Positions 2,220-52,654 of a DNA stretch of 64,000 nt are shown piece by piece. Position numbers and translations under genes: made by a program. Position 1 is the first letter of the stretch. Each line of letters begins with the position of its first letter. The stretch is taken from contig MNRP01000056.1 in NCBI GenBank assembly GCA_001916005.1, forward strand, positions 182-64,181, written 5' to 3'. The notes beneath the pieces were generated by a model. That model was not told the origin of the DNA. It searched no databases and saw nothing but the letters and a program-made list of their open reading frames with translations. This DNA comes from Clostridium sp. 26_22 (GTDB lineage: Bacteria > Bacillota > Clostridia > TANB77 > CAG-508).

Positions 2220-3242
2220 TTATTTGTTGTTTAACTTCTTTGTTTCAATTACTAACTCATCAAAATCTGAAATATAATTTTGGTCTTGTATAACTCTATA
2301 TTTCTTGTACTCGTCTAATGCCAACTTATCCGCTATTTCTCTTTTTATTTTTCCATTATCTTTTAAAATATTATATTCATTTATTTTTAAGAATACTTCT
2401 AATTTTTCTTTCCATTCTTTCATTGAAATAATTTTTCCTAGTTTCACTTGTCTTTCTGCATAATCAAGGTACATTGATACCAAATTATTTAGTTCCGCAA
2501 TTTCTTCTTGTGATAGGTAATTTTTTGCTATTGTTACATCTGTTTCAAGTATTTTTCCATCTGGTGCATTTTTCCAAGTTGTTAGTCCCATATTCTCTTT
2601 TTTACTATCCACCCTATTATAAATTATTTCAGGAGCTGTCATTCCAGTAATTGCAAAATGTAACTTATTTTGAACATTTTTATAAAATTCCTGTGTTGTT
2701 TCGCTAGTTTTATCATAATCAAAACTGCATTCTTTATATATATCTGTTATTTTTTGATAAAATCTTCTTTCGCTTGCTCTAATTTCTTTTATTTTTACTA
2801 ATAATTCATCAAAGTAATCTTTTCCAAATTTAGGACCATTTTTTAGCATTTCACTATTAACAACAAAGCCTTTTTTTATATATTCTTTTAATGCTTTTGT
2901 TGCCCATATTCTAAAATCTGTTGCTTCTTTTGAATTCACTCTATATCCTACAGCTATAATTGCGTCAAGACTATAAAATGTTACTTCTCTTGAAACTTTT
3001 CTATTTCCTTCATTTTGAACTACTCTAATTTTTTGAGTAGTTCGATTTTCATTTAATTCCCCTGTTTTAAAAATGTTTTGTAAATGATATGTAATATTAT
3101 TTTCTGCTACATTAAATAATTTAGACATTGACTTTTGAGTTAACCAGAAATCTTCTTCATTATATAAAACTTCTACTGATATATTTTCATTATTTTGGCT
3201 TTGGTAAATAATTAAATCCTTTAAATTCTCTATATTATTCAA
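2220..3242 (-). CDS. rhuM: RhuM family virulence/accessory protein
   Basis: 340 aa. Recognised family pattern (WLTQKSMSKLF, YSLDAIIAVGYRVNS, ASERRFYQKITDIY). TTG start. Confidence 0.8.
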   Translation of the reverse strand: MNNIENLKDLIIYQSQNNENISVEVLYNEEDFWLTQKSMSKLFNVAENNITYHLQNIFKTGELNENRTTQKIRVVQNEGNRKVSREVTFYSLDAIIAVGYRVNSKEATDFRIWATKALKEYIKKGFVVNSEMLKNGPKFGKDYFDELLVKIKEIRASERRFYQKITDIYKECSFDYDKTSETTQEFYKNVQNKLHFAITGMTAPEIIYNRVDSKKENMGLTTWKNAPDGKILETDVTIAKNYLSQEEIAELNNLVSMYLDYAERQVKLGKIISMKEWKEKLEVFLKINEYNILKDNGKIKREIADKLALDEYKKYRVIQDQNYISDFDELVIETKKLNNK

Positions 3243-3579: not shown

Positions 3580-4157
3580 CTATTTTCCTCCTGTACAATC
3601 TCCACCCTGAAATGGTCGATAAGCGTTATTTTTTTCATAATTAGTGTACTTACTTGTGTTTATTCCCATTCTTCTAATTTCACGTTTGTATTGTCTATAA
3701 GCCATCTCATCTTCCCTTGAATCAACAGATGAAGACCAATTTTCAGGAATAAAAAAGTCTGGTTGCAGAACAATACTACCATGGTACCTTTTGGAACTAA
3801 TTCCAAGTTTTACTTCATTACATTCATTTGGCTTTTTTAATCTATCATCCAATTTGTATCTTCCCTTTAATTCTATATAAAGGTGTCCTCCTGATTTGCA
3901 ATAATCTGTATCTTCAAACCGAATATATAAATCAAATTTGCTATTTTGAACTTTCAGTATCTTCTTGGTTATGCTCCGCTTTGGAATTACAATTTTTACT
4001 TTGTAATTTGGACCATTGTAAAAAACAATTACTTTGATATCACCCTCTGTTGAAACACCACATTCATCATTTTTGGAACAATCTTCTAATTGCAAAATTT
4101 CTTTTTGGGTTTTAGTTTGTTTTTTTGAGTTTTCTGACCGTTTCTTTTTTTAGACAT
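3580..4157 (-). CDS. hypothetical basic protein (about 192 aa if a 1-nt frameshift near 4095-4100 is corrected)
   Basis: ATG at 4157 has a GGAGG RBS and reads MSKKRNGQKTQKNKLKPKKKFCN then stops. The 171-aa ORF continues in another frame from 4095. No family recognised. Confidence 0.5.
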
Positions 4158-4241
4158 TGCTACCTCCTTAAAGTCATTTGGAGGTTTGAAACCTCCAAGT
4201 TATTTGTTTTACTTTTTGGTTTCTAAAATAATTTACTTATA
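4158..4241 (-). promoter_or_regulatory. conserved 5' leader, copy 1 (four-segment SD/anti-SD switch-like element)
   Basis: Near-identical to 21275-21350. Contains hairpin UUGGAGG-UUUCAAA-CCUCCAA (4178-4198) and upstream GAAACCAAAAAG (4212-4223). Confidence 0.55.
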
Positions 4242-4242
4242 G

Positions 4243-4271
4243 AGCATATCATAATTTTATGTAAATTGCAA
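4243..4271 (-). promoter_or_regulatory. putative sigma-A promoter TTGCAA-17-TATGCT
   Basis: Hexamers read on the minus strand, with TG at the extended -10 position. Confidence 0.4.
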
Positions 4272-4333
4272 ACATTTTTCAAATATCTTAATTTATAATA
4301 TTTTAATTTATATACTTTAAATAATTTTATTTG

Positions 4334-6067
4334 CTATTTATTTTTATCTTTAAAGAATTTATTAAATAATCCTTTTGAATTTTTATTCTTTTGAGAAGTA
4401 CCTTCTTTTTTATTTAGTAATGGCTTCTCATGTTTTATTTTTTCTTCTACTTTTTTACTATCTTCATCGTCATACTCATTATCATCATCAATGTATTTTT
4501 CTTCGTCATCTTCCGTTTCTTCTTCATCATCTTCGTCATAATCAAAATCATATATATCTTCATAATCTTCGTCTAAATCATCATCAATTTCGTCATTTTC
4601 ATCTTTATCGTTTTCTTCTTCCATGTCGTCATCACCATCATAATCATAGTCTTCTTCGTCGTCATATTCGTCATAGGTGTCTTCCTCTTCGTCATCTTCT
4701 TCATATTCCTCATCATCATCATCATCGAAATATTCTTCTTCATCATCTTCTAACTCATCTTCATCTTCTTCTGGGAAATCATATGAAAGTAAATCTTCAT
4801 CGCTTTCATTAGTATCTTCGCTTGAATTATAATTTGCTTGTTCTTCTGGTTCTTCTTCTATTTCATCTTCAAGTTCTTCTAATTGATACTCTGATAAATC
4901 CTTTCCAAATTTTGTTGTTATTTCATCTTGGAAGACTTCATATATATTTTTGATTCCATCAATTCTCCAATAATTTGAATTAATTATTGTTCCTGCTTTT
5001 AATTTTATGTTGTTAATTGCTTCTTCAAAATTTTTCTCTTTCTCTTCGATATTTTTCAAATATTCTTTATTGTATAGTTCATTATAAGCTTTTTTTGTTG
5101 ATTTTCCAGCAATTTCTCTTAATACTAATTGATATAAATTTCCAAATTGTTCTATATCTAATTCGAATTTTTCACAAGCTTCTGTCATCATTACTTTATG
5201 TGCTTTTAAGCCATTTATTGCTGTCATTCTTTCATTATCTAAGAAACTAACAATATATTCTTTTTCTGCTTTTAAAAACTCTAGCTTTACTGAAACATCT
5301 CTTAGTGTTTTTTGGTATTTATCTAATTTAATATCTTCATTTTCAATTTCATTTAGTAATCTTTTTGTTTTATCATACACTAAAATATATGATTCCGCTT
5401 CTTTTTGTGCTATTTTTGTTCTTGCATTTACTGATTTTTCTACTACGTCTTCATTGAATTTTACTTTTTCATCTTTACCATTGCTTATCATTATTTCTGC
5501 AATCTCTTTTTTTATGTCATCTAATGTTTCTGCTGATGCAAATTGCTTTAATTCTTTTATTTTGTTAACATCTATTTCTTGTAATTCTTTTTTTAATTCT
5601 TCAATCAACTGAATATGAGTGCCTTCTTCTATTCTTCTTGCTTTTGAACATTTATTTCTTTCTTTTTGTCTTTCATTAAATTCATTTAAATTTTCTGTAA
5701 ATCCATTTTTTAATTCTTCCAAACGTTCATTATTACTTAAAATTGTTTGTCCTATTTTTTCTAACTTTTTTTCTAGAAGGGCTGGATCTTCATCTAAGTC
5801 ATCAAACAATTTATTTCTATCTTCTTCAAGTTTTATGTTTGATTTATATAGTTTTTTTTGTTCTTGTTGTATATTTCTAATTTCATTTGCTATTTGGTCA
5901 AACTGTTCTATTTGTTTTTCTTCTTCTTCAATTATTTCTTGATATTTGCATGTTTCTTCTATTATGTTTTTATAACTATTATATAAATTCTTTAAATTGT
6001 TTTTTTCATTAAATCCAAATATTTTGTTGAAATATTTTTCTAATACTATTGCACTTCTTTCATACAT
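4334..6067 (-). CDS. hypothetical coiled-coil protein with an extremely acidic D/E/Y-rich C-terminal tail
   Basis: 577-aa ORF with RBS GAGGAGG. Heptad-like E/K-rich N-terminal 400 aa, then about 150 aa that are almost entirely D/E/Y, then a basic end. Confidence 0.7.
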   Translation of the reverse strand: MYERSAIVLEKYFNKIFGFNEKNNLKNLYNSYKNIIEETCKYQEIIEEEEKQIEQFDQIANEIRNIQQEQKKLYKSNIKLEEDRNKLFDDLDEDPALLEKKLEKIGQTILSNNERLEELKNGFTENLNEFNERQKERNKCSKARRIEEGTHIQLIEELKKELQEIDVNKIKELKQFASAETLDDIKKEIAEIMISNGKDEKVKFNEDVVEKSVNARTKIAQKEAESYILVYDKTKRLLNEIENEDIKLDKYQKTLRDVSVKLEFLKAEKEYIVSFLDNERMTAINGLKAHKVMMTEACEKFELDIEQFGNLYQLVLREIAGKSTKKAYNELYNKEYLKNIEEKEKNFEEAINNIKLKAGTIINSNYWRIDGIKNIYEVFQDEITTKFGKDLSEYQLEELEDEIEEEPEEQANYNSSEDTNESDEDLLSYDFPEEDEDELEDDEEEYFDDDDDEEYEEDDEEEDTYDEYDDEEDYDYDGDDDMEEENDKDENDEIDDDLDEDYEDIYDFDYDEDDEEETEDDEEKYIDDDNEYDDEDSKKVEEKIKHEKPLLNKKEGTSQKNKNSKGLFNKFFKDKNK

Positions 6068-7808: not shown

Positions 7809-7834
7809 AAAAAATACTAGGTCTTTCCTAGTAT
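7809..7834 (-). terminator. intrinsic terminator overlapping the rusA stop codon
   Basis: AUACUAGG-aaaga-CCUAGUAU followed by U6. Confidence 0.6.
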
Positions 7835-8238
7835 TCTTCTATCTTTATTTGTAATTTTTCTTCTATTCCATAAATTTTTTCTACTTCTAATTTTGTTATT
7901 TGAGTATCATCTTTAAATGCAAATTTATTCATTGCATCTAAAACTATTTTTACTATATTATCTATATCAGGTTTTTTGGTTGGACTTATTATATTGTTCA
8001 ACATATTTTCTTTGTCACTCTTTTTTGTACTTTTAGGAACTTCAAAATATGCTGTAATAGTTACTTTTGCTCTTCCAACAATTTCTTTAAAACGTGGGTA
8101 TTTTAATAAAAAATATTGTTCTACTAAAGTTTCGTAGTCTTTTGTTTTTGTTGGTGTATATACTATTCCAGTATATGAATTTACCCTTGGTCTTCCTTTT
8201 CCTGTTATCTTGCCTGGTACTTCGAATTCGTATGTCAT
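7828..8238 (-). CDS. rusA: RusA family crossover junction endodeoxyribonuclease
   Basis: 136 aa. Motifs GKGRPR, TPTKTKDYE, KPDIDNIVKIVLDAMN, FKDDTQI. Confidence 0.8.
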   Translation of the reverse strand: MTYEFEVPGKITGKGRPRVNSYTGIVYTPTKTKDYETLVEQYFLLKYPRFKEIVGRAKVTITAYFEVPKSTKKSDKENMLNNIISPTKKPDIDNIVKIVLDAMNKFAFKDDTQITKLEVEKIYGIEEKLQIKIEEY

Positions 8239-17402: not shown

Positions 17403-17714
17403 TTATAGTTCAAATATTTTTTCTAAGGCTTCTGCAACCCCTTCGTTATTGTTTGTTGTTGTAATAATATCTGCTCTTTCATATAATTCTTTTACTGCAT
17501 TTTTCATTGCTATTTTATAGCCTACTGTTTCAAACATTTCTATATCATTTCTTCCATCTCCAATTGCTATTGTTTGTGATAAATCTATTTTTAAATATTT
17601 GCTTAGATTTCTTATTGCATCTCCTTTTGTTGTATTTGGTGCCATTATATCTGTTATATATGGATTACTAATATAACCATTTTTTACTTTTCTTTGTTTT
17701 TGAGTTAGTCCCAT
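17403..17714 (-). pseudogene. C-terminal fragment of a Cof-type HAD-IIB phosphatase
   Basis: Only about 85 aa of the C-terminal core remain (TKGDAIRNL...IAIGDGRNDIEMF...AMKNA). Intact members are about 260 aa. Confidence 0.6.
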
Positions 17715-17782
17715 TTTTTTGCCTCCTATTTTTGTTATTTTGTATTTGTTTTTGTTTTTGTTTTTTTATACTGAATAACTTG

Positions 17783-17820
17783 AAAAAAGCTAGAAATTCA
17801 TTTCGAATTTCTAGCTTTTT
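17783..17820 (-). terminator. intrinsic (bidirectional) terminator after the M29 aminopeptidase gene
   Basis: 12-bp stem AGCUAGAAAUUC/GAAUUUCUAGCU flanked by A6 and T5. Confidence 0.65.
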
Positions 17821-17831
17821 ATTTTATAAAA

Positions 17832-18950
17832 TTATATTAAATTTTCTGGATTTAATGCTTCTAATTCTGGTAATACAAATATTCCATCTTTTCTAACAAG
17901 AACATCATCAAAATACATTTCTCCGCCACCGTATTCTTTTCTTTGAATGTTTACAATGTCCCAATGTATACTTGATCTATTTCCATTGTCACTTTCCTCT
18001 AGAGCTTCTCCAGGTGTAAAGTGGAAACTTCCTTTTATTTTTTCATCAAATAATGTGTCTCCAATTGGTTTTTCTACATAAGGATTTAAACCTAATGCAA
18101 ATTCGCCTATATAACGAGCTCCTTTATCTGTATCTAAGATTTTGTTTAGCATTTCTGTGTTATTTGAGGTTGCTTTTACTATTTTTCCATTTTCAAATTC
18201 AAATCTAATATTATTAAATAAAACTCCATTATATGTTGTTTCTATATTATATGTAATATAACCATTTACACTATCTTTAACTGGTGCAGTAGCTACTTCT
18301 CCATCTGGAATATTGAATGTTCCCATATATTTTTCTGCTGGTATTCCTTTTATACTGAAAGTTAAATCTGTTCCTGGTCCTACAATATGAACTTTATCTG
18401 TTTTATTCATTAAGTCTTTTAAATTATCCATTGCTTTTGACATTTTTGCATAATCTAAATTACATACATTAAAATAGAAATCTTCAAAATTTTCTAAATT
18501 CATTTTACTCATTTGTGCCATTGAGTTATTTGGATATCTTAATATACACCATTTTGTTCTTTTTACTCTTTCTTCAAAGTGTACTGGTATCATATAATAT
18601 TTATTGTACATTTCCATTATTTTGCTATCTATGTTTGATATTTCTGAGGTGTTTGATGATGCTCTAATTCCTATATATGCGTCCATGTCTTTCATTCTTG
18701 CTGTATCATGTTTACTATATAATTTGATTTGTTCTTCTGTTGCATTTTCTAACATTATTCTTAGTAATTCATAATTTATTATGTTGAAGTATGGTCTAGC
18801 TTTCATTTGTTCTGCTTGTCTCATTAATTCTTTTGCTAGTGGCATTCCTTCTTCTCCTAATACTTCTATCAGTAGATTGTCATTTTCTTTTAAATCTATT
18901 GAGTATGTTAATAGGTTATGCGCTAACTTTTCTATTCTTGGATCTTTCAT
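17832..18950 (-). CDS. aminopeptidase, M29 (AmpS/PepS) family
   Basis: 372 aa. Recognised family pattern (KLAHNLLTYS..., GEFALGLNP, SIHWDIV). Confidence 0.8.
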   Translation of the reverse strand: MKDPRIEKLAHNLLTYSIDLKENDNLLIEVLGEEGMPLAKELMRQAEQMKARPYFNIINYELLRIMLENATEEQIKLYSKHDTARMKDMDAYIGIRASSNTSEISNIDSKIMEMYNKYYMIPVHFEERVKRTKWCILRYPNNSMAQMSKMNLENFEDFYFNVCNLDYAKMSKAMDNLKDLMNKTDKVHIVGPGTDLTFSIKGIPAEKYMGTFNIPDGEVATAPVKDSVNGYITYNIETTYNGVLFNNIRFEFENGKIVKATSNNTEMLNKILDTDKGARYIGEFALGLNPYVEKPIGDTLFDEKIKGSFHFTPGEALEESDNGNRSSIHWDIVNIQRKEYGGGEMYFDDVLVRKDGIFVLPELEALNPENLI

Positions 18951-19030
18951 TTTTGTTCCTCTCTTTCGTTTTTTTTGTTCATTTTATCATATGCTTTTTT
19001 ATTTGTAAAATGCTATCTAATAAATTCATC

Positions 19031-19070
19031 AAAAATTTTAAAAAAGGTAAAAATCTAAATTCTTACCTTT
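19031..19070 (-). terminator. intrinsic terminator for minus-strand transcripts coming from 19.1-20.5 kb
   Basis: AAAGGUAA...UUACCUUU followed by a U-rich tract. Confidence 0.5.
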
Positions 19071-19182
19071 GATTTTACAGCTCCCACTTATCGGTAGGGT
19101 TCACCTGATTTTCAACTGTTGCTATTAATGTTTAATTTTTAATAATTTTTTGTTAATTTTTCGTTACAATTTTTTATATTTT

Positions 19183-19212
19183 CTTGACTTTATTATTATA
19201 CTTATCATATAA
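19183..19212 (+). promoter_or_regulatory. putative sigma-A promoter TTGACT-18-TATAAT for the antisense sRNA
   Basis: Hexamers read directly. Predicted TSS is about 19218-19220. Confidence 0.5.
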
Positions 19213-19217
19213 TATAA

Positions 19218-19308
19218 ATAGGAAAAGATAAATCCGTTAGATACGGTTTTGCCTATAAATAGTTAAATAAACCATTCATCTCGGTCAAAAGTAGAATGGT
19301 TTATTTTT
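19218..19308 (+). ncRNA. candidate antitoxin sRNA (about 90 nt), antisense to the 3' region of the toxin mRNA
   Basis: Promoter upstream. Canonical terminator AAACCAUUC..GAAUGGUUU plus U6 (19268-19308). No ORF. Confidence 0.5.
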
Positions 19309-19420
19309 TATTTATGTAATTGCTTGTTTATCCAGTTCTTATACAGAACTGACATTAAGGCAACGTTTAATGTTAAAGATAACATTAATGATATTACAAA
19401 AAATAGTATTACTTTAATCA
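19307..19420 (-). CDS. candidate type I toxin, 37-aa hydrophobic peptide MIKVILFFVISLMLSLTLNVALMSVLYKNWINKQLHK
   Basis: ATG..TAA ORF translated by hand. One TM helix plus a polar/basic tail. The SD-like GGGUGGUG lies inside a GC-rich stem. Confidence 0.5.
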
Positions 19421-19498
19421 TAAACACCACCCGCCTTTCCTACGATGAATCGTATAATATTGGGTGGCAAAACCGTTCCACTAATTATCTATTTCCTA
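19421..19498 (-). promoter_or_regulatory. toxin mRNA 5' UTR with mutually exclusive helices around the SD
   Basis: CCACCC (19466-19461) pairs either with GGGUGG (19431-19426, the SD) or, through CCAC, with GUGG (19480-19477). Confidence 0.45.
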
Positions 19499-19504
19499 TA
19501 TTAT

Positions 19505-19533
19505 TATTCTACAATATTATTATAGTTTTGTCT
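19505..19533 (-). promoter_or_regulatory. putative promoter TAGACA-17-TAGAAT for the toxin mRNA
   Basis: Hexamers read on the minus strand. Predicted TSS is about 19498. Confidence 0.4.
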
Positions 19534-19579
19534 ATACCAATAAGTAATTTTTTACTTTTTTAATTTTTTCATATTTTTC

Positions 19580-20536
19580 CTAACTTTCTTTTATATTCCA
19601 CTTTGGTGGATACATATATTCTATTTTATCAGTTTTTGCAACATATTTCTTTTTGATTTTTGTACGATTTGATTTTAATTCTGGTACTGCCTGTCTACAA
19701 TATTTATCTAGTTCACAAAATATATTTTGACAATCTATTAATTGTAAAGGTCTATTACCTATTGGCTTAAAATCTAAACCCAATCTTTTAAATTCCTTTT
19801 CTTGATTTTTACACATATATTTTATAATTTCTTCTTTTGATAATTCACCTGTACTTATAAAACACTTTTTTATTCCTCTTTCTGACCCAGGTCCTGCTAC
19901 CGTAAATTCCATTTCACTAAAATCTACAACATTACTATAATTTATATCTGTAATTAATTGATATGCCATAAAATTTCCAATAAGAGGATATGATTTTATT
20001 ATATTAAATGCTTCTTCCATATTTTTACTGTTAATTATTTTTGTATCAATATGGTCTTTTAAAAACATTTTTTCCAATAAGGCTAAATGATTTTCATGTT
20101 TTCTATCATAGCCAAATGCTTTATTTGCACAACTTATATATGCGTCATTATAAATTTTTTGTCCATTATTTATTGCTTTTTCTAGTATTTGTGAATATTT
20201 ATTAAAATCAAAACTTGATAAAGTTATATCTCCTATTTCATTTTCTAATAATTCCCATGTTGATTCTTTATTAAATAATTTAAATAATATTATTCTAAAA
20301 ATCATATCTGCATCTGTATATTTTTTACCATTATAAATCACATTTTTTAATAAGTATTGGCTTACTCTATCATTTACTCTATAGCTATTGCAAAACTTAA
20401 ATTCTTGCAAAATTTCATCTTTTGTCCATGGTGCTGGTTCTCCATTTTTCTTTTTTAGAAAAATATTTTGCCTTTCACATGCAAAATACCAATATAGATT
20501 GTATATTTTTTCTCTTTTTATTATTTTTTCTTCCAA
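19580..20536 (-). CDS. 5-hmdU DNA kinase-like / DNA base hypermodification family protein (helical domain)
   Basis: 318 aa. N-terminal signature YWYFACERQNIFLKKKNGEPAPWTKDEILQEFKFCNSYRVNDRVSQYL matches my recollection of the 5-HMUDK/aGPT-Pplase-type family. TTG start with AAGGAGA RBS. Confidence 0.55.
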   Translation of the reverse strand: MEEKIIKREKIYNLYWYFACERQNIFLKKKNGEPAPWTKDEILQEFKFCNSYRVNDRVSQYLLKNVIYNGKKYTDADMIFRIILFKLFNKESTWELLENEIGDITLSSFDFNKYSQILEKAINNGQKIYNDAYISCANKAFGYDRKHENHLALLEKMFLKDHIDTKIINSKNMEEAFNIIKSYPLIGNFMAYQLITDINYSNVVDFSEMEFTVAGPGSERGIKKCFISTGELSKEEIIKYMCKNQEKEFKRLGLDFKPIGNRPLQLIDCQNIFCELDKYCRQAVPELKSNRTKIKKKYVAKTDKIEYMYPPKWNIKES

Positions 20537-20607
20537 TTTTTTATCTCCTTATTTTATAAGTACTTACATTTTATCATATATAATATTTTTTTCAACTTTT
20601 TTAGGCG

Positions 20608-20645
20608 AAAAATAAGACCAAAATAATTCATAATATTTTGGTCTT
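20608..20645 (-). terminator. intrinsic terminator after the Ham1-like gene
   Basis: 12-bp stem AAGACCAAAAUA/UAUUUUGGUCUU followed by AUUUUU. Confidence 0.65.
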
Positions 20646-20668
20646 ATTTTTGGTTTAATCATATTAAA

Positions 20669-21274
20669 TTAAATTGCTTTTAATATGGTTTCAAAAGCTT
20701 TCTTTCTTGGTCCTATGTTATCTTTTTCTTCTGGACTAAGTTCAGAAAGTGTTTTGTCATAACCTTTTGCTTTGAAATATTGGTCAAATCCAAATTCTCT
20801 TTGACCTGCTTTCTGGCACATATCTCCATCTAATTTTTCTTCTACATATATAGTTCTTTCATTATCTATAAAAGCCATTGCAGTAACCCAATGTGCAGTA
20901 GTATCTTTATTTTCACTCTCTCCCATAAGGTCTAAAATTATAGGATATAGTTCACTTGGTTTGTCTACGTTTACATTTGAACCTGGACAAAGTTTTTCTA
21001 GACAACGTTTGGTATAAACACCTGGATATCCATCTAAGGCATCTATCTCTATTCCAGAATCTTCAGCAATTACTGGCATTTTTAATTTTTCTGCCCAATA
21101 TTTTGCTTTTATTGTTGCATTTTCCAAAAATGTTTTTCCTGTTTCCTCTGCTTGAGGTAGATTTGTTGCTTCTGGTATGTCTTTTAAGCAAAGTATTTTT
21201 ATATTATCTGGTGCCATCCTTTGCATTTCTTCTGCTTTTTTTTGGTTACAACTTGCGAAAACTATTTGTTTCAT
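20669..21274 (-). CDS. Ham1/RdgB family non-canonical purine NTP pyrophosphatase, divergent
   Basis: 201 aa. Conserved EETGKTFLENA, AEDSGIEIDAL.GYPGVY and FGFDQYF. Several canonical residues differ (SCNQKK for TGNxGK, GPRKKA for SHRxxA). Confidence 0.75.
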   Translation of the reverse strand: MKQIVFASCNQKKAEEMQRMAPDNIKILCLKDIPEATNLPQAEETGKTFLENATIKAKYWAEKLKMPVIAEDSGIEIDALDGYPGVYTKRCLEKLCPGSNVNVDKPSELYPIILDLMGESENKDTTAHWVTAMAFIDNERTIYVEEKLDGDMCQKAGQREFGFDQYFKAKGYDKTLSELSPEEKDNIGPRKKAFETILKAI

Positions 21275-21350
21275 TTTTTCCTCCTTAAATTTTCTTGGAG
21301 GTTTAAAACCTCCAAGTTTTGTACTTTTTGGTTTTTAAAACTAAATACAT
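21275..21350 (-). promoter_or_regulatory. conserved 5' leader, copy 2 (four-segment SD/anti-SD switch-like element)
   Basis: Hairpin CUUGGAGG-UUUUAAA-CCUCCAAG (21294-21316) and upstream AAAACCAAAAAG (21325-21336). Near-identical to 4158-4241. Confidence 0.55.
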
Positions 21351-21355
21351 TTCAT

Positions 21356-21384
21356 ATTATAGCATTTTTTTATGTCAATATCAA
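21356..21384 (-). promoter_or_regulatory. putative sigma-A promoter TTGATA-17-(TGc)TATAAT
   Basis: Hexamers read on the minus strand. Confidence 0.5.
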
Positions 21385-21399
21385 GATTAAATATAATTT

Positions 21400-21701
21400 C
21401 TATCTCCATATCTCCCCATTTATATGTTTTGTTAATGCCATTATAAATGCATTTTTTGTTAAATCTATTCTTGTTATTTCATCTCTTGTTAAGAAACTTA
21501 TTCCACCCTTTCCTTTTCCAGATTCTTTTATATTAAATATTTTATCCATAACTTTTCCAAGTTCTGTTTCTTTTATTTCATTTATGTATTTATCTGGAAT
21601 AGGAAATCCTTGGCTTGTTCCTACACTTTGAAATCCTTTTGCATCTTCTATAACTACCGCATTTATATCAATCCATTCTCCCAAAAGATTAATATTTTCA
21701 T
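21400..21701 (-). CDS. hypothetical protein (about 100 aa), either frameshifted in a T4 run near 21685-21690 or starting at the TTG at 21684
   Basis: ATG at 21701 with AGGAGA RBS reads MKILIFWENGLI then stops. The 94-aa ORF continues in another frame. No family recognised. Confidence 0.4.
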
Positions 21702-51478: not shown

Positions 51479-52654
51479 TTAAAATATTTCCAAATAAACT
51501 CTCTTATTTTCAAAATCATAATTTATCTTAGCTTCAAATTTTTCTACAAATTCTTCCAAAGTACCACCAACATAAACAGTGTCACTTTTATTTTCTTTAG
51601 AAGTATCTTCTTGCTTAACTTTATAAATTTTATTTTTATATCTTATTTTTCTAACATAATCAAGATCTTTATTTATCTTTAAAATTTCTACTGACTCAAT
51701 ACTTTTAAGCAAAACATTTCCTATTCCAGTAATTTTATATTTTTGTTCATCTGTATAATAATAAAGTTTTGCATTTTCATCATTGTACAATTTAGCATTT
51801 GTACCATCTAATATTATTTCAAGTTGTTTTGGTCTCCAAATATTTTCAATTTCTACTTGGTTTATTTTATTTAATTCTTGCTGGTTGTTTCTTTCTTTTA
51901 ATATGTTGATATATTCATATTTTGCTTTATATATTTCCTTTTCAATTGATGATAGTCCATTACAATTTAATGAATTATAATAGTCTATTTTTTTATTTCT
52001 TATTGTAATTGCTTCATACATTTTATTGTCTTGTTTTTCTAGATATTTAACTATATTATAAGCTTTATTACATGCACTTTCTAACTCATCATAATTTTCT
52101 ATATCAATATAAACTTCATATTTTAAAAAATCTGTATTATAACCTTCTTTTATTCCTTGTTCAATATTTAAATTAGATACCAAAGATTTATCACTACAAT
52201 TTTCTATATAATATTTTAATCTATTTTCAGAATAATCATCTACCATATATACTGAACCTTTTTCTACTTTAAATATTATATTTTTATTGTTTTTAGGACT
52301 CATTAAAAATTGTCCATTATCTTTTTCAATATCTTTACCATAATCATTTACAACTACAAATTTTTGTCCTCTATATTCATTTTTCAATTGTTTCTTTACA
52401 TTAACTGATGCATAAATTCCAAATAAACTTTTTATATAAAATAATGAAACTATAACTGCAATTATAAATATTATTACAAATATTGAAAAAACAGAGCCTA
52501 ATAATTTACTTATTAATTTAGTAAATATTTCTGTGCCTCTATATTCTTTTGCTTTAAATTCTTTTACATTATTTTTCTGTTTTATTTCATTTTGCTTATC
52601 TTGCCATTCTTCTAGTTCTTTCCAATCTTCTTCTTTACTCATATTTTTCTCCAT
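51479..52654 (-). CDS. hypothetical membrane-anchored protein
   Basis: 391 aa with one TM near residue 55. Likely start is the second ATG (52642), which has a GGAG RBS. Confidence 0.5.
   Translation of the reverse strand: MEKNMSKEEDWKELEEWQDKQNEIKQKNNVKEFKAKEYRGTEIFTKLISKLLGSVFSIFVIIFIIAVIVSLFYIKSLFGIYASVNVKKQLKNEYRGQKFVVVNDYGKDIEKDNGQFLMSPKNNKNIIFKVEKGSVYMVDDYSENRLKYYIENCSDKSLVSNLNIEQGIKEGYNTDFLKYEVYIDIENYDELESACNKAYNIVKYLEKQDNKMYEAITIRNKKIDYYNSLNCNGLSSIEKEIYKAKYEYINILKERNNQQELNKINQVEIENIWRPKQLEIILDGTNAKLYNDENAKLYYYTDEQKYKITGIGNVLLKSIESVEILKINKDLDYVRKIRYKNKIYKVKQEDTSKENKSDTVYVGGTLEEFVEKFEAKINYDFENKRVYLEIF

Follow-up and report, generated by a model that had tools for sequence, protein, structure and literature searches.

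A promoter and leader cassette shared by unrelated genes of gut Clostridia, and a probable two-state leader within it

Two copies of a promoter and leader unit

We analyzed a stretch of 64,000 nucleotides (nt) from Clostridium sp. 26_22 (assembly GCA_001916005.1, contig MNRP01000056.1, positions 182 to 64,181 of the forward strand), referred to here as the window, which has a G+C content of about 25%. An original prediction, made from the letters of this DNA alone, had pointed to a conserved 5' leader shared by two genes about 17 kb apart. Both leaders were found on the minus strand, with the RNA strings quoted for them present letter for letter, one before an orphan gene (copy 1) and the other before a gene of the Ham1 family (copy 2). 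In each copy, a promoter is followed by a first segment (seg1), a hairpin composed of two complementary segments (seg2 and seg3), and a fourth segment (seg4) that contains the Shine-Dalgarno sequence (SD) of the gene (Table 1). The promoter and the leader together are called the cassette below, and its 5' untranslated region (UTR) is discussed as a candidate translational switch.

Table 1. Coordinates of the two cassette copies and of their genes in the window, followed by the classes of protein encoded behind the cassette (aa, amino acids; NTP, nucleoside triphosphate)
Feature	Position	Strand	Details
Copy 1 promoter	-35, 4271-4266; -10, 4248-4243	minus	-35 TTGCAA; 17-nt spacer TTTACATAAAATTATGA; TG-extended -10 TATGCT
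Copy 1 seg1	4223-4211	minus	GAAACCAAAAAGU
Copy 1 hairpin/palindrome	4198-4178	minus	seg2 UUGGAGGUUU 4198-4189; loop C 4188; seg3 AAACCUCCAA 4187-4178
Copy 1 seg4	4172-4163	minus	UUUAAGGAGG; SD AAGGAGGU 4169-4162, 5-nt spacer, ATG 4157-4155
Copy 1 gene (class A)	3580..4157	minus	192-aa orphan in relatives; out of frame in the window
Copy 2 promoter	-35, 21384-21379; -10, 21361-21356	minus	-35 TTGATA; 17-nt spacer; TG-extended -10 TATAAT; 11/12 positions, TG present
Copy 2 seg1	21335-21323	minus	AAAACCAAAAAGU; first base A, loop base U
Copy 2 hairpin/palindrome	21315-21295	minus	seg2 21315-21306; loop U 21305; seg3 21304-21295
Copy 2 seg4	21289-21280	minus	UUUAAGGAGG, then spacer, ATG 21274-21272
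Copy 2 gene (class H)	20669..21274	minus	Ham1-family non-canonical purine NTP pyrophosphatase, 201 aa; PF01725, E = 1.2e-44
Class A protein			192 aa; gene behind window copy 1
Class B protein			65 aa
Class C protein			151 aa
Class D protein			149 aa
Class E protein			141 aa
Class F protein			133 aa
Class G protein			243 aa; weak P-loop signal only
Class H protein			201 aa; Ham1, gene behind window copy 2
Class I protein			102 aa
Class J protein			56 aa
Class K protein			104 aa

Local alignment of the upstream regions of the two copies revealed 55 identical positions out of 66 (83%), running from UUUUAGAAACC through the SD, whereas the first 150 coding bases of the two genes shared a match of 8 nt at most. 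The claim that two near-identical leaders stand before unrelated genes, with conservation ending at the start codon, was thereby confirmed, except that the boundary set for copy 1 at 4158 was one base off. Both copies are built around a perfect 10-1-10 palindrome, TTGGAGGTTT-N-AAACCTCCAA (4178-4198 and 21295-21315); the 21-nt palindrome TTGGAGGTTTNAAACCTCCAA occurred twice in the window, against 0.00 occurrences expected from 100 shuffles. A covariance model built from 15 leaders matched both copies only in the 64 kb, with 92.1 and 89.5 bits (E about 1e-15), while the next best match reached 18 bits. A search with Rfam 15 at gathering thresholds gave no matches of any family in the 64-kb window. 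When positions 4120-4300 were searched up to E = 10, the best matches were the traJ 5' UTR (RF00243) and ar15, which scored 13.9 and 13.6 bits, where the gathering thresholds are 50 and 40, and were at chance level (E 1.3 to 7.6). These results agreed with the earlier statement that no known riboswitch class fits the leader. The hairpin sequence was not found in a literature search either. The leader is genuine, conserved and previously undescribed.

Each leader had also been described as lying downstream of its own sigma-A-like promoter. The promoters were found as described, but they are not separate from the repeat: TTGCAA-17-TGaTATGCT of copy 1 and TTGATA-17-TGcTATAAT of copy 2 are homologous and, as judged from the alignment, the repeated unit is the promoter together with the leader, about 115 bp rather than about 70 nt in length. 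In the copy 1 promoter, both hexamers aligned with those of the cassette promoters from 12 other gene classes. This promoter was not listed by a simple promoter scan with a threshold of 9 of 12 positions, because 8 of its 12 positions match, and an overlapping TTGAAA/TAAAAT candidate at 4282-4254 was listed in its place.

The promoter spacer (4249-4265 and 21362-21378) holds a conserved 11-mer, TTTACATAAAA, which was found in the window, at no more than two mismatches, in the two cassettes and at one further place, 52431-52446 on the plus strand. Its exact reverse complement, TTTTATGTAAA, occupies the same spacer position in two of the collected loci (L004 and L080), and the 11-mer is also present in the Ham1 promoter of a locus without the cassette (L035). 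It may be a protein site that is functional in either orientation, or a chance occurrence in AT-rich DNA.

Distribution of the cassette and the genes behind it

A palindrome scan with one genome per species yielded 22 loci. Those in Arcicella and Ardenticatenaceae lacked all other parts of the cassette and were rejected as chance matches, and the remaining 20 were species-level metagenome-assembled genomes (MAGs) of uncultured 'Clostridia bacterium' or 'Clostridium sp.', with one exact palindrome each. The order promoter, seg1, hairpin, SD and ATG was kept in all 20. In the 5' half of this layout, the promoter TTGCAATTTACATAAAAATATGnTATAcT is followed by about 20 variable nt, seg1 as (G/A)AAACCAAAAAGU, and 8-13 variable nt; the 3' half consists of the hairpin, 5 nt, UUUAAGGAGG, 5-10 nt and the ATG. 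A metagenome scan anchored on seg3 and the SD yielded 37 loci, of which 35 were human-gut contigs carrying the standard cassette. One other, L068, on a Joint Genome Institute (JGI) contig of unstated source, is a diverged member, and L065 was judged a chance match. The element is thus present in 20 species-level MAGs and 35 metagenome contigs, and is not confined to the two copies in the window, the case that the original prediction had named as speaking against it.

No matches were obtained in a palindrome scan of the IMG/VR viral contigs, and a flank-anchored pattern matched only unrelated coding sequences in the same collection. A blastn search of phage and plasmid records with the cassette returned nothing relevant, giving a single 25-nt chance match. 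The covariance model found no further copies in the window, in the scanned flanks of the collected loci or around L068; a 24-bit match in L064 was dismissed, as it lay inside a coding region and had no hairpin. The scope is modest: the cassette was found in one clade, in which each representative genome has one exact palindrome and the window has two.

The presence of the cassette varied among orthologous genes. A Ham1 orthologue at 92% identity carries it, with one extra loop base, while orthologues at 82, 80, 75 and 71% identity have unrelated upstream regions without it, and the cassette therefore moves between genes. Among class A homologues, those at 61 and 67% identity have the cassette and one at 59% does not. 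Between classes, similarity starts at the -35 and stops at the SD or ATG. The stretch from the -10 to seg1 and the linker from seg1 to the hairpin (8-13 nt) vary in sequence and length, whereas the -35, the -10, seg1, the hairpin, the 5-nt gap and UUUAAGGAGG are near-invariant; since flexible stretches alternate with near-invariant blocks, the likeness is not just a product of recent copying. The hairpin stands at an identical distance from the SD in 22 of 22 aligned leaders; L080 alone has one additional nt. At the level of sequence comparison, this block pattern indicates purifying selection. No terminal or flanking repeats were seen by eye at the cassette ends, where no formal repeat search was run.

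The genes behind the cassette fall into 11 protein families without detectable similarity to one another (Table 1). Ten of the families are orphans without Pfam, PHROG or PADLOC assignment, and one is Ham1. The original prediction of a cis-element, as opposed to a gene duplication, was supported by the unrelated coding sequences in the window and by the 11 unrelated families. The regulon that the downstream genes were expected to define did not emerge: orphans and Ham1 form no coherent regulon or shared pathway, and no regulator gene was consistently linked to the cassette. Homologues of the class A protein comprised 34 clusters only, all at least 59% identical. AlphaFold predicted a beta-sandwich for it with moderate confidence (pLDDT 67), and no significant fold match to this model was found in the PDB (best E = 0.044, TM about 0.2). 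A homologue search with the class K protein returned the protein itself alone.

The gene of copy 1, an 'unknown basic protein' in the original prediction, proved to be an orphan, but one that is out of frame in the window. Its ATG opens a 23-codon open reading frame (ORF; 4157-4086, stop included), and the 171-aa body (3580-4095) lies in another frame, because a run of A residues has seven bases (A7, 4151-4145) where other strains have eight (A8). The A7 run, in codons 3-5 of the class A gene, was observed in the window and in four independent metagenome contigs (L045, L049, L063 and L077), and A8 with an intact 192-aa ORF in at least six same-species contigs (L083-L088, 98.8% identical over 1057 nt; 23 contigs read). 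The A7 and A8 forms could reflect slippage-driven phase variation or differences fixed between strains. Class D is truncated or frameshifted in relatives (L013, L014, L018, L046, L058, L061, L062 and L071), with a length of 36 aa in several species, and so are genes of class B (L010), Ham1 (L048 and L066) and class A (L056). Such frequent truncation or frameshift suggests that the genes behind the cassette are dispensable or often switched off.

A two-fold model of the leader and its alternatives

In the model that we propose, the unit is a portable expression cassette of about 115 bp, with a strong sigma-A-type promoter and a 5' UTR of about 80 nt that probably acts as a translational switch, and it is re-used by placement before unrelated, mostly orphan, often strain-variable genes of related gut Clostridia. 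The leader has four segments. Seg1 is (G/A)AAACC-AAA-AAGU; seg2, (AC)UUGGAGGUUU(C/U), is an SD look-alike (UUGGAGGU); seg3, AAACCUCCAA, is a look-alike of the 16S anti-SD (ACCUCC); and seg4, UUUAAGGAGG(U), located 5-10 nt 5' of the ATG, is the real SD. In fold A, seg2 and seg3 would form a hairpin of 9-10 bp, which would leave the real SD accessible and allow translation. In fold B, seg1 would pair with seg2 through two helices, P1 (GAAACC:GGUUUC) and P1b (AAGU:ACUU), with a 3x3 internal loop (AAA/GGA) between them, and the freed seg3 would pair with the real SD (ACCUCC:GGAGGU), so that translation is off. Candidates for the trigger would be the action of a protein or small RNA (sRNA) on the hairpin or on seg1, removal of seg1 by 5' processing, or co-transcriptional kinetics.

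In copy 1, GAAACC of seg1 is complementary to GGUUUC formed by seg2 and the loop, and AAGU is complementary to ACUU just 5' of seg2. Unconstrained minimum free energy (MFE) prediction returned fold B for copy 1 and fold A for copy 2. When the two folds were enforced on 21 leaders, B minus A ranged from -4.2 to +5.5 kcal/mol, with a fold B architecture that was alike in all, and unguided RNAalifold on 21 leaders also returned fold B, with the SD hidden. The pairing of fold B held in 93% of cells, compared with 21-55% when the partners were slid. Where seg1 varies, it does so mostly at columns 19-21, which belong to the predicted internal loop. The pair between its first base and the loop base is G-C in 16 leaders and A-U in 4, L071 being the single exception, and G·U replacements are present in P1b. 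As to control by CsrA, for which two GGA motifs (one in the SD) and a csrA gene would be expected, the leader contains two GGA motifs 31 nt apart, one of them in the internal loop of fold B. The leaders thus have in common blocks that are conserved and complementary, and the predicted energies of their two folds are nearly equal. From these data we infer that both folds may form in the cell, that the balance between them would set translation, and that something would shift this balance.

Two variant members were informative as to which features are retained. L081 reads CUUGGAGGU-UUCU-ACCUCCAAG; the AAA of seg3 is lost and the centre of the palindrome is asymmetric, while the 9-bp stem and GGUUUC are kept. 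L068 shares the promoter, seg3, the gap and the SD with the standard cassette. Its seg2 is altered to AUUUGGGGGAU, which pairs over 8 bp with seg3 (one G·U) in a hairpin that reads UUUGGGGG-AUAAA-CCUCCAAA, and its seg1 is altered to AUCCCUCAAAU, which pairs over 11 bp with its own seg2 (shuffle P = 0.013). L068 is the most telling case for the two-fold model.

Taken together, the best-supported reading is that of a portable cassette whose 5' UTR is a probable two-state translational leader, to which we assign a probability of about 0.5. Several results weigh against it. Covariation is thin, as a single pair changes on both sides, with L071 as an exception, and the covarying leaders (the Ham1 copies and L014 of class D) may share one ancestor. 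The hairpin showed no variation in the aligned set, an invariance that is partly an artefact because most leaders were collected with patterns that require the hairpin. Shuffled upstream sequences equalled the real energy of fold B in 0.4-15% of trials, depending on the leader, and the complementarity of seg1 and seg2 is therefore suggestive, not compelling. Predicted accessibility of the SD at 37 C ranged from 0.01 to 0.75 among leaders, without a common response to temperature. Finally, with one palindrome per representative genome and two in the window, a dedicated trans-acting factor would not be obviously economical.

The main rival, which we consider rather unlikely, is a static element, in which a portable strong promoter is combined with an insulated ribosome-binding site (RBS), the hairpin does no more than stabilize the mRNA or shield the strong SD from the variable sequence upstream, seg1 serves as an enhancer or protein-binding tract rich in A, and the leader does not switch. 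The stable hairpin at a fixed distance from a near-perfect SD in 22 of 22 aligned leaders is consistent with this idea, as is the range of unrelated orphan genes, which suits a generic expression signal; moreover, no trigger or ligand pocket is visible, and fold A is the MFE structure of the Ham1 copies. However, given the divergence of the flanks, a purely structural hairpin should drift by covariation, whereas the outer 8-9 bp of the arms keep the SD/anti-SD sequence in every standard member, including the members found through their proteins. A static element would also leave unexplained the conservation pattern of seg1, which matches helices with seg2, and the joint change of seg1 and seg2 in L068. 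In addition, the SD of class A leaders was predicted to be about 95% paired at equilibrium.

The original prediction had offered 'RNA or operator'. As a DNA operator, the 21-bp palindrome (about +40 to +60) would bind a dimeric transcription factor that blocks elongation or initiation, with the genes behind it as the regulon. The perfect 10-1-10 palindrome, whose half-sites are invariant across species, would suit such a factor, and the conserved spacer motif TTTACATAAAA could be a second protein site. However, the spacing of the half-sites is not fixed, being 10-2-10 in three gene classes (L041, L051/L055 and L078), the centre is asymmetric in L081, and the arms are unequal with a G·U in L068, the RNA stem being kept in both of the latter. 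That variants alter the loop length or the palindrome centre, or add a G·U, yet keep the RNA pairing argues against an operator. The strict spacing is, furthermore, to the SD and not to the promoter, the distance from seg1 to the palindrome varies by 5 nt, and a consistently linked regulator gene is missing. Accordingly, the RNA part of the earlier proposal was retained, as pairing is kept in variants, and the operator part, which is improbable when the spacing and symmetry of the half-sites change, was not.

Recent promoter capture or duplication, with a leader of no special function and blocks alike through youth, is very improbable. It would account for the gain and loss of the cassette upstream of orthologues, and promoter re-use before unrelated genes is documented (PMC3575422), but the stretches between the blocks are saturated with substitutions and indels while the blocks are nearly invariant, and the cassette is common to 20 species-level genomes. 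There is a still smaller chance that the unit is an antisense intrinsic terminator, in which the hairpin, read on the plus strand and followed by the T-rich complement of seg1, would halt transcription that approaches the promoter from downstream. A terminator scan flagged both window copies on the plus strand, but no plus-strand genes to be terminated lie near copy 2, the bases after the stem are not T-rich in L005 (GAATGTATAC), L003 (GTATTAATGA), L016 (GTTAAGTGTC) or L004, and the conserved T-rich CTTTTTGGTTTC lies 8-13 nt from the stem, too distant for a U-tract. The least probable alternative is a small-molecule riboswitch controlling translation: the leader recalls such a switch in that its two folds exclude each other and the SD is hidden in one of them, but the only long unpaired stretch is the variable linker of 8-13 nt, the loops vary (C, U, A, CA, UA and UUCU), and the absence of a coherent regulon among the 11 unrelated families and of a conserved unpaired aptamer core makes a metabolite riboswitch unlikely.

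As for the wider meaning of the two-state leader, it is conceivable, though doubtful, that the cassette represents an undescribed class of self-contained, horizontally shuffled riboregulator, in which a promoter and a four-segment leader made of SD and anti-SD copies would set or switch the translation of any orphan gene behind them, possibly sensing the availability of ribosomes or 16S, 5' processing or a clade-specific factor. If the two-fold model is true, the cassette would be a compact natural plug-in module for expression and translation control that moves between genes and species of abundant uncultured human-gut Clostridia, and it would single out orphan genes under common control, several of which are inactivated or vary between strains. 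The motif is short, and is a potential genetic part for low-GC anaerobes.

Genomic surroundings and comparison with known systems

Upstream of copy 1, a 577-aa ORF (4334-6067, minus strand) without a Pfam family ends 60 nt from the promoter, and its C-terminal third is an extreme Asp/Glu-rich low-complexity tract. The class A gene is followed in the window by a RhuM-family gene (2220-3242) with a match to PDC-S05, a candidate defence family of PADLOC (E = 6e-142). Other strains are similar to the window up to a point about 80 nt past the class A stop (about 3500), after which they have a sigma-70 gene of the extracytoplasmic function (ECF) type; the junction downstream of the class A gene is, by this comparison, strain-variable. 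The neighbourhood of copy 2 (17403-21684) is rearranged relative to the close relatives L041 and L040 (Ham1, full-length Hydrolase_3 and PfkB, in this order). In the window, Ham1 is separated from Hydrolase_3 by a 5-hmdU-DNA-kinase helical-domain protein (19580-20536) and an M29 peptidase (17832-18950), Hydrolase_3 is truncated (17403-17714, 103 aa), and a C-terminal fragment of an NTPase_I-T (DUF84) gene (21400-21684) is found just upstream of the cassette. Among housekeeping genes, a possible prophage remnant is a gene for a Holliday-junction resolvase of the RusA family (7828-8238). Nearly all long ORFs are on the minus strand (1-26 kb examined), and the GC skew is negative throughout the window (-0.04 to -0.29), in keeping with a single replichore of a low-GC, Firmicute-like genome.

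Among known systems, the translational attenuator of the ermC type is closest in logic, as it also has four segments that pair either as 1:2 and 3:4, with the SD hidden, or as 2:3, with the SD free. It differs in that seg2 and seg3 of the cassette are themselves copies of the SD and anti-SD. The ermC attenuator requires that the ORF of a leader peptide, equipped with an SD of its own, overlaps seg1, and its trigger is a stalled ribosome; in the cassette, by inspection, no conserved start codon or SD was found upstream of seg1 or overlapping it, and the reading frames across seg1 are not conserved between classes. RNA thermometers such as ROSE and fourU are single imperfect hairpins that melt. 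The cassette leader resembles them in being short and in having the pairing of the SD as its only evident output, but it has two competing folds. With rising temperature, the predicted unpaired probability of the SD increased from 0.14 to 0.66 in the leader of class H and from 0.22 to 0.63 in that of class B, and was flat in classes C, D and K; a consistent temperature response was not predicted.

Stabilizing elements of Firmicute-type leaders offer a further comparison. In the STAB-SD of cry3A and the aprE leader, an upstream SD is free for the 30S subunit, or a stem lies at the very 5' end. Like them, the cassette has a stem-loop and, well upstream of the real SD, an SD-like GGAGG. In the cassette, however, this SD copy, about 40 nt from the predicted 5' end, is base-paired to a copy of the anti-SD. 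The traJ 5' UTR (traJ_5, RF00243) is likewise a leader with a hairpin and an SD.

In its evolution, the cassette fits promoter re-use. Putative mobile promoters (PMPs) are upstream sequences that are highly similar although the genes behind them are non-homologous, whether these lie in a single genome or in different species (Nijveen, Matus-Garcia and van Passel 2012, PMC3575422), and regulatory RNA motifs can ride on such promoters (PMC3575422). The cassette, too, is a similar upstream region before non-paralogous genes. The operational definition of a PMP calls for an identity of 80% or more across 50 nt or more in the interval from -150 to -50 (PMC3575422), but the window copies align over 17 nt in that interval and have their 66-nt, 83% match at -75 to -1, because the conserved part is mostly 5' UTR. 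If the two-fold model is true, the cassette would thus be a concrete case of a post-transcriptional regulator, beyond a promoter alone, that is re-used before unrelated genes.

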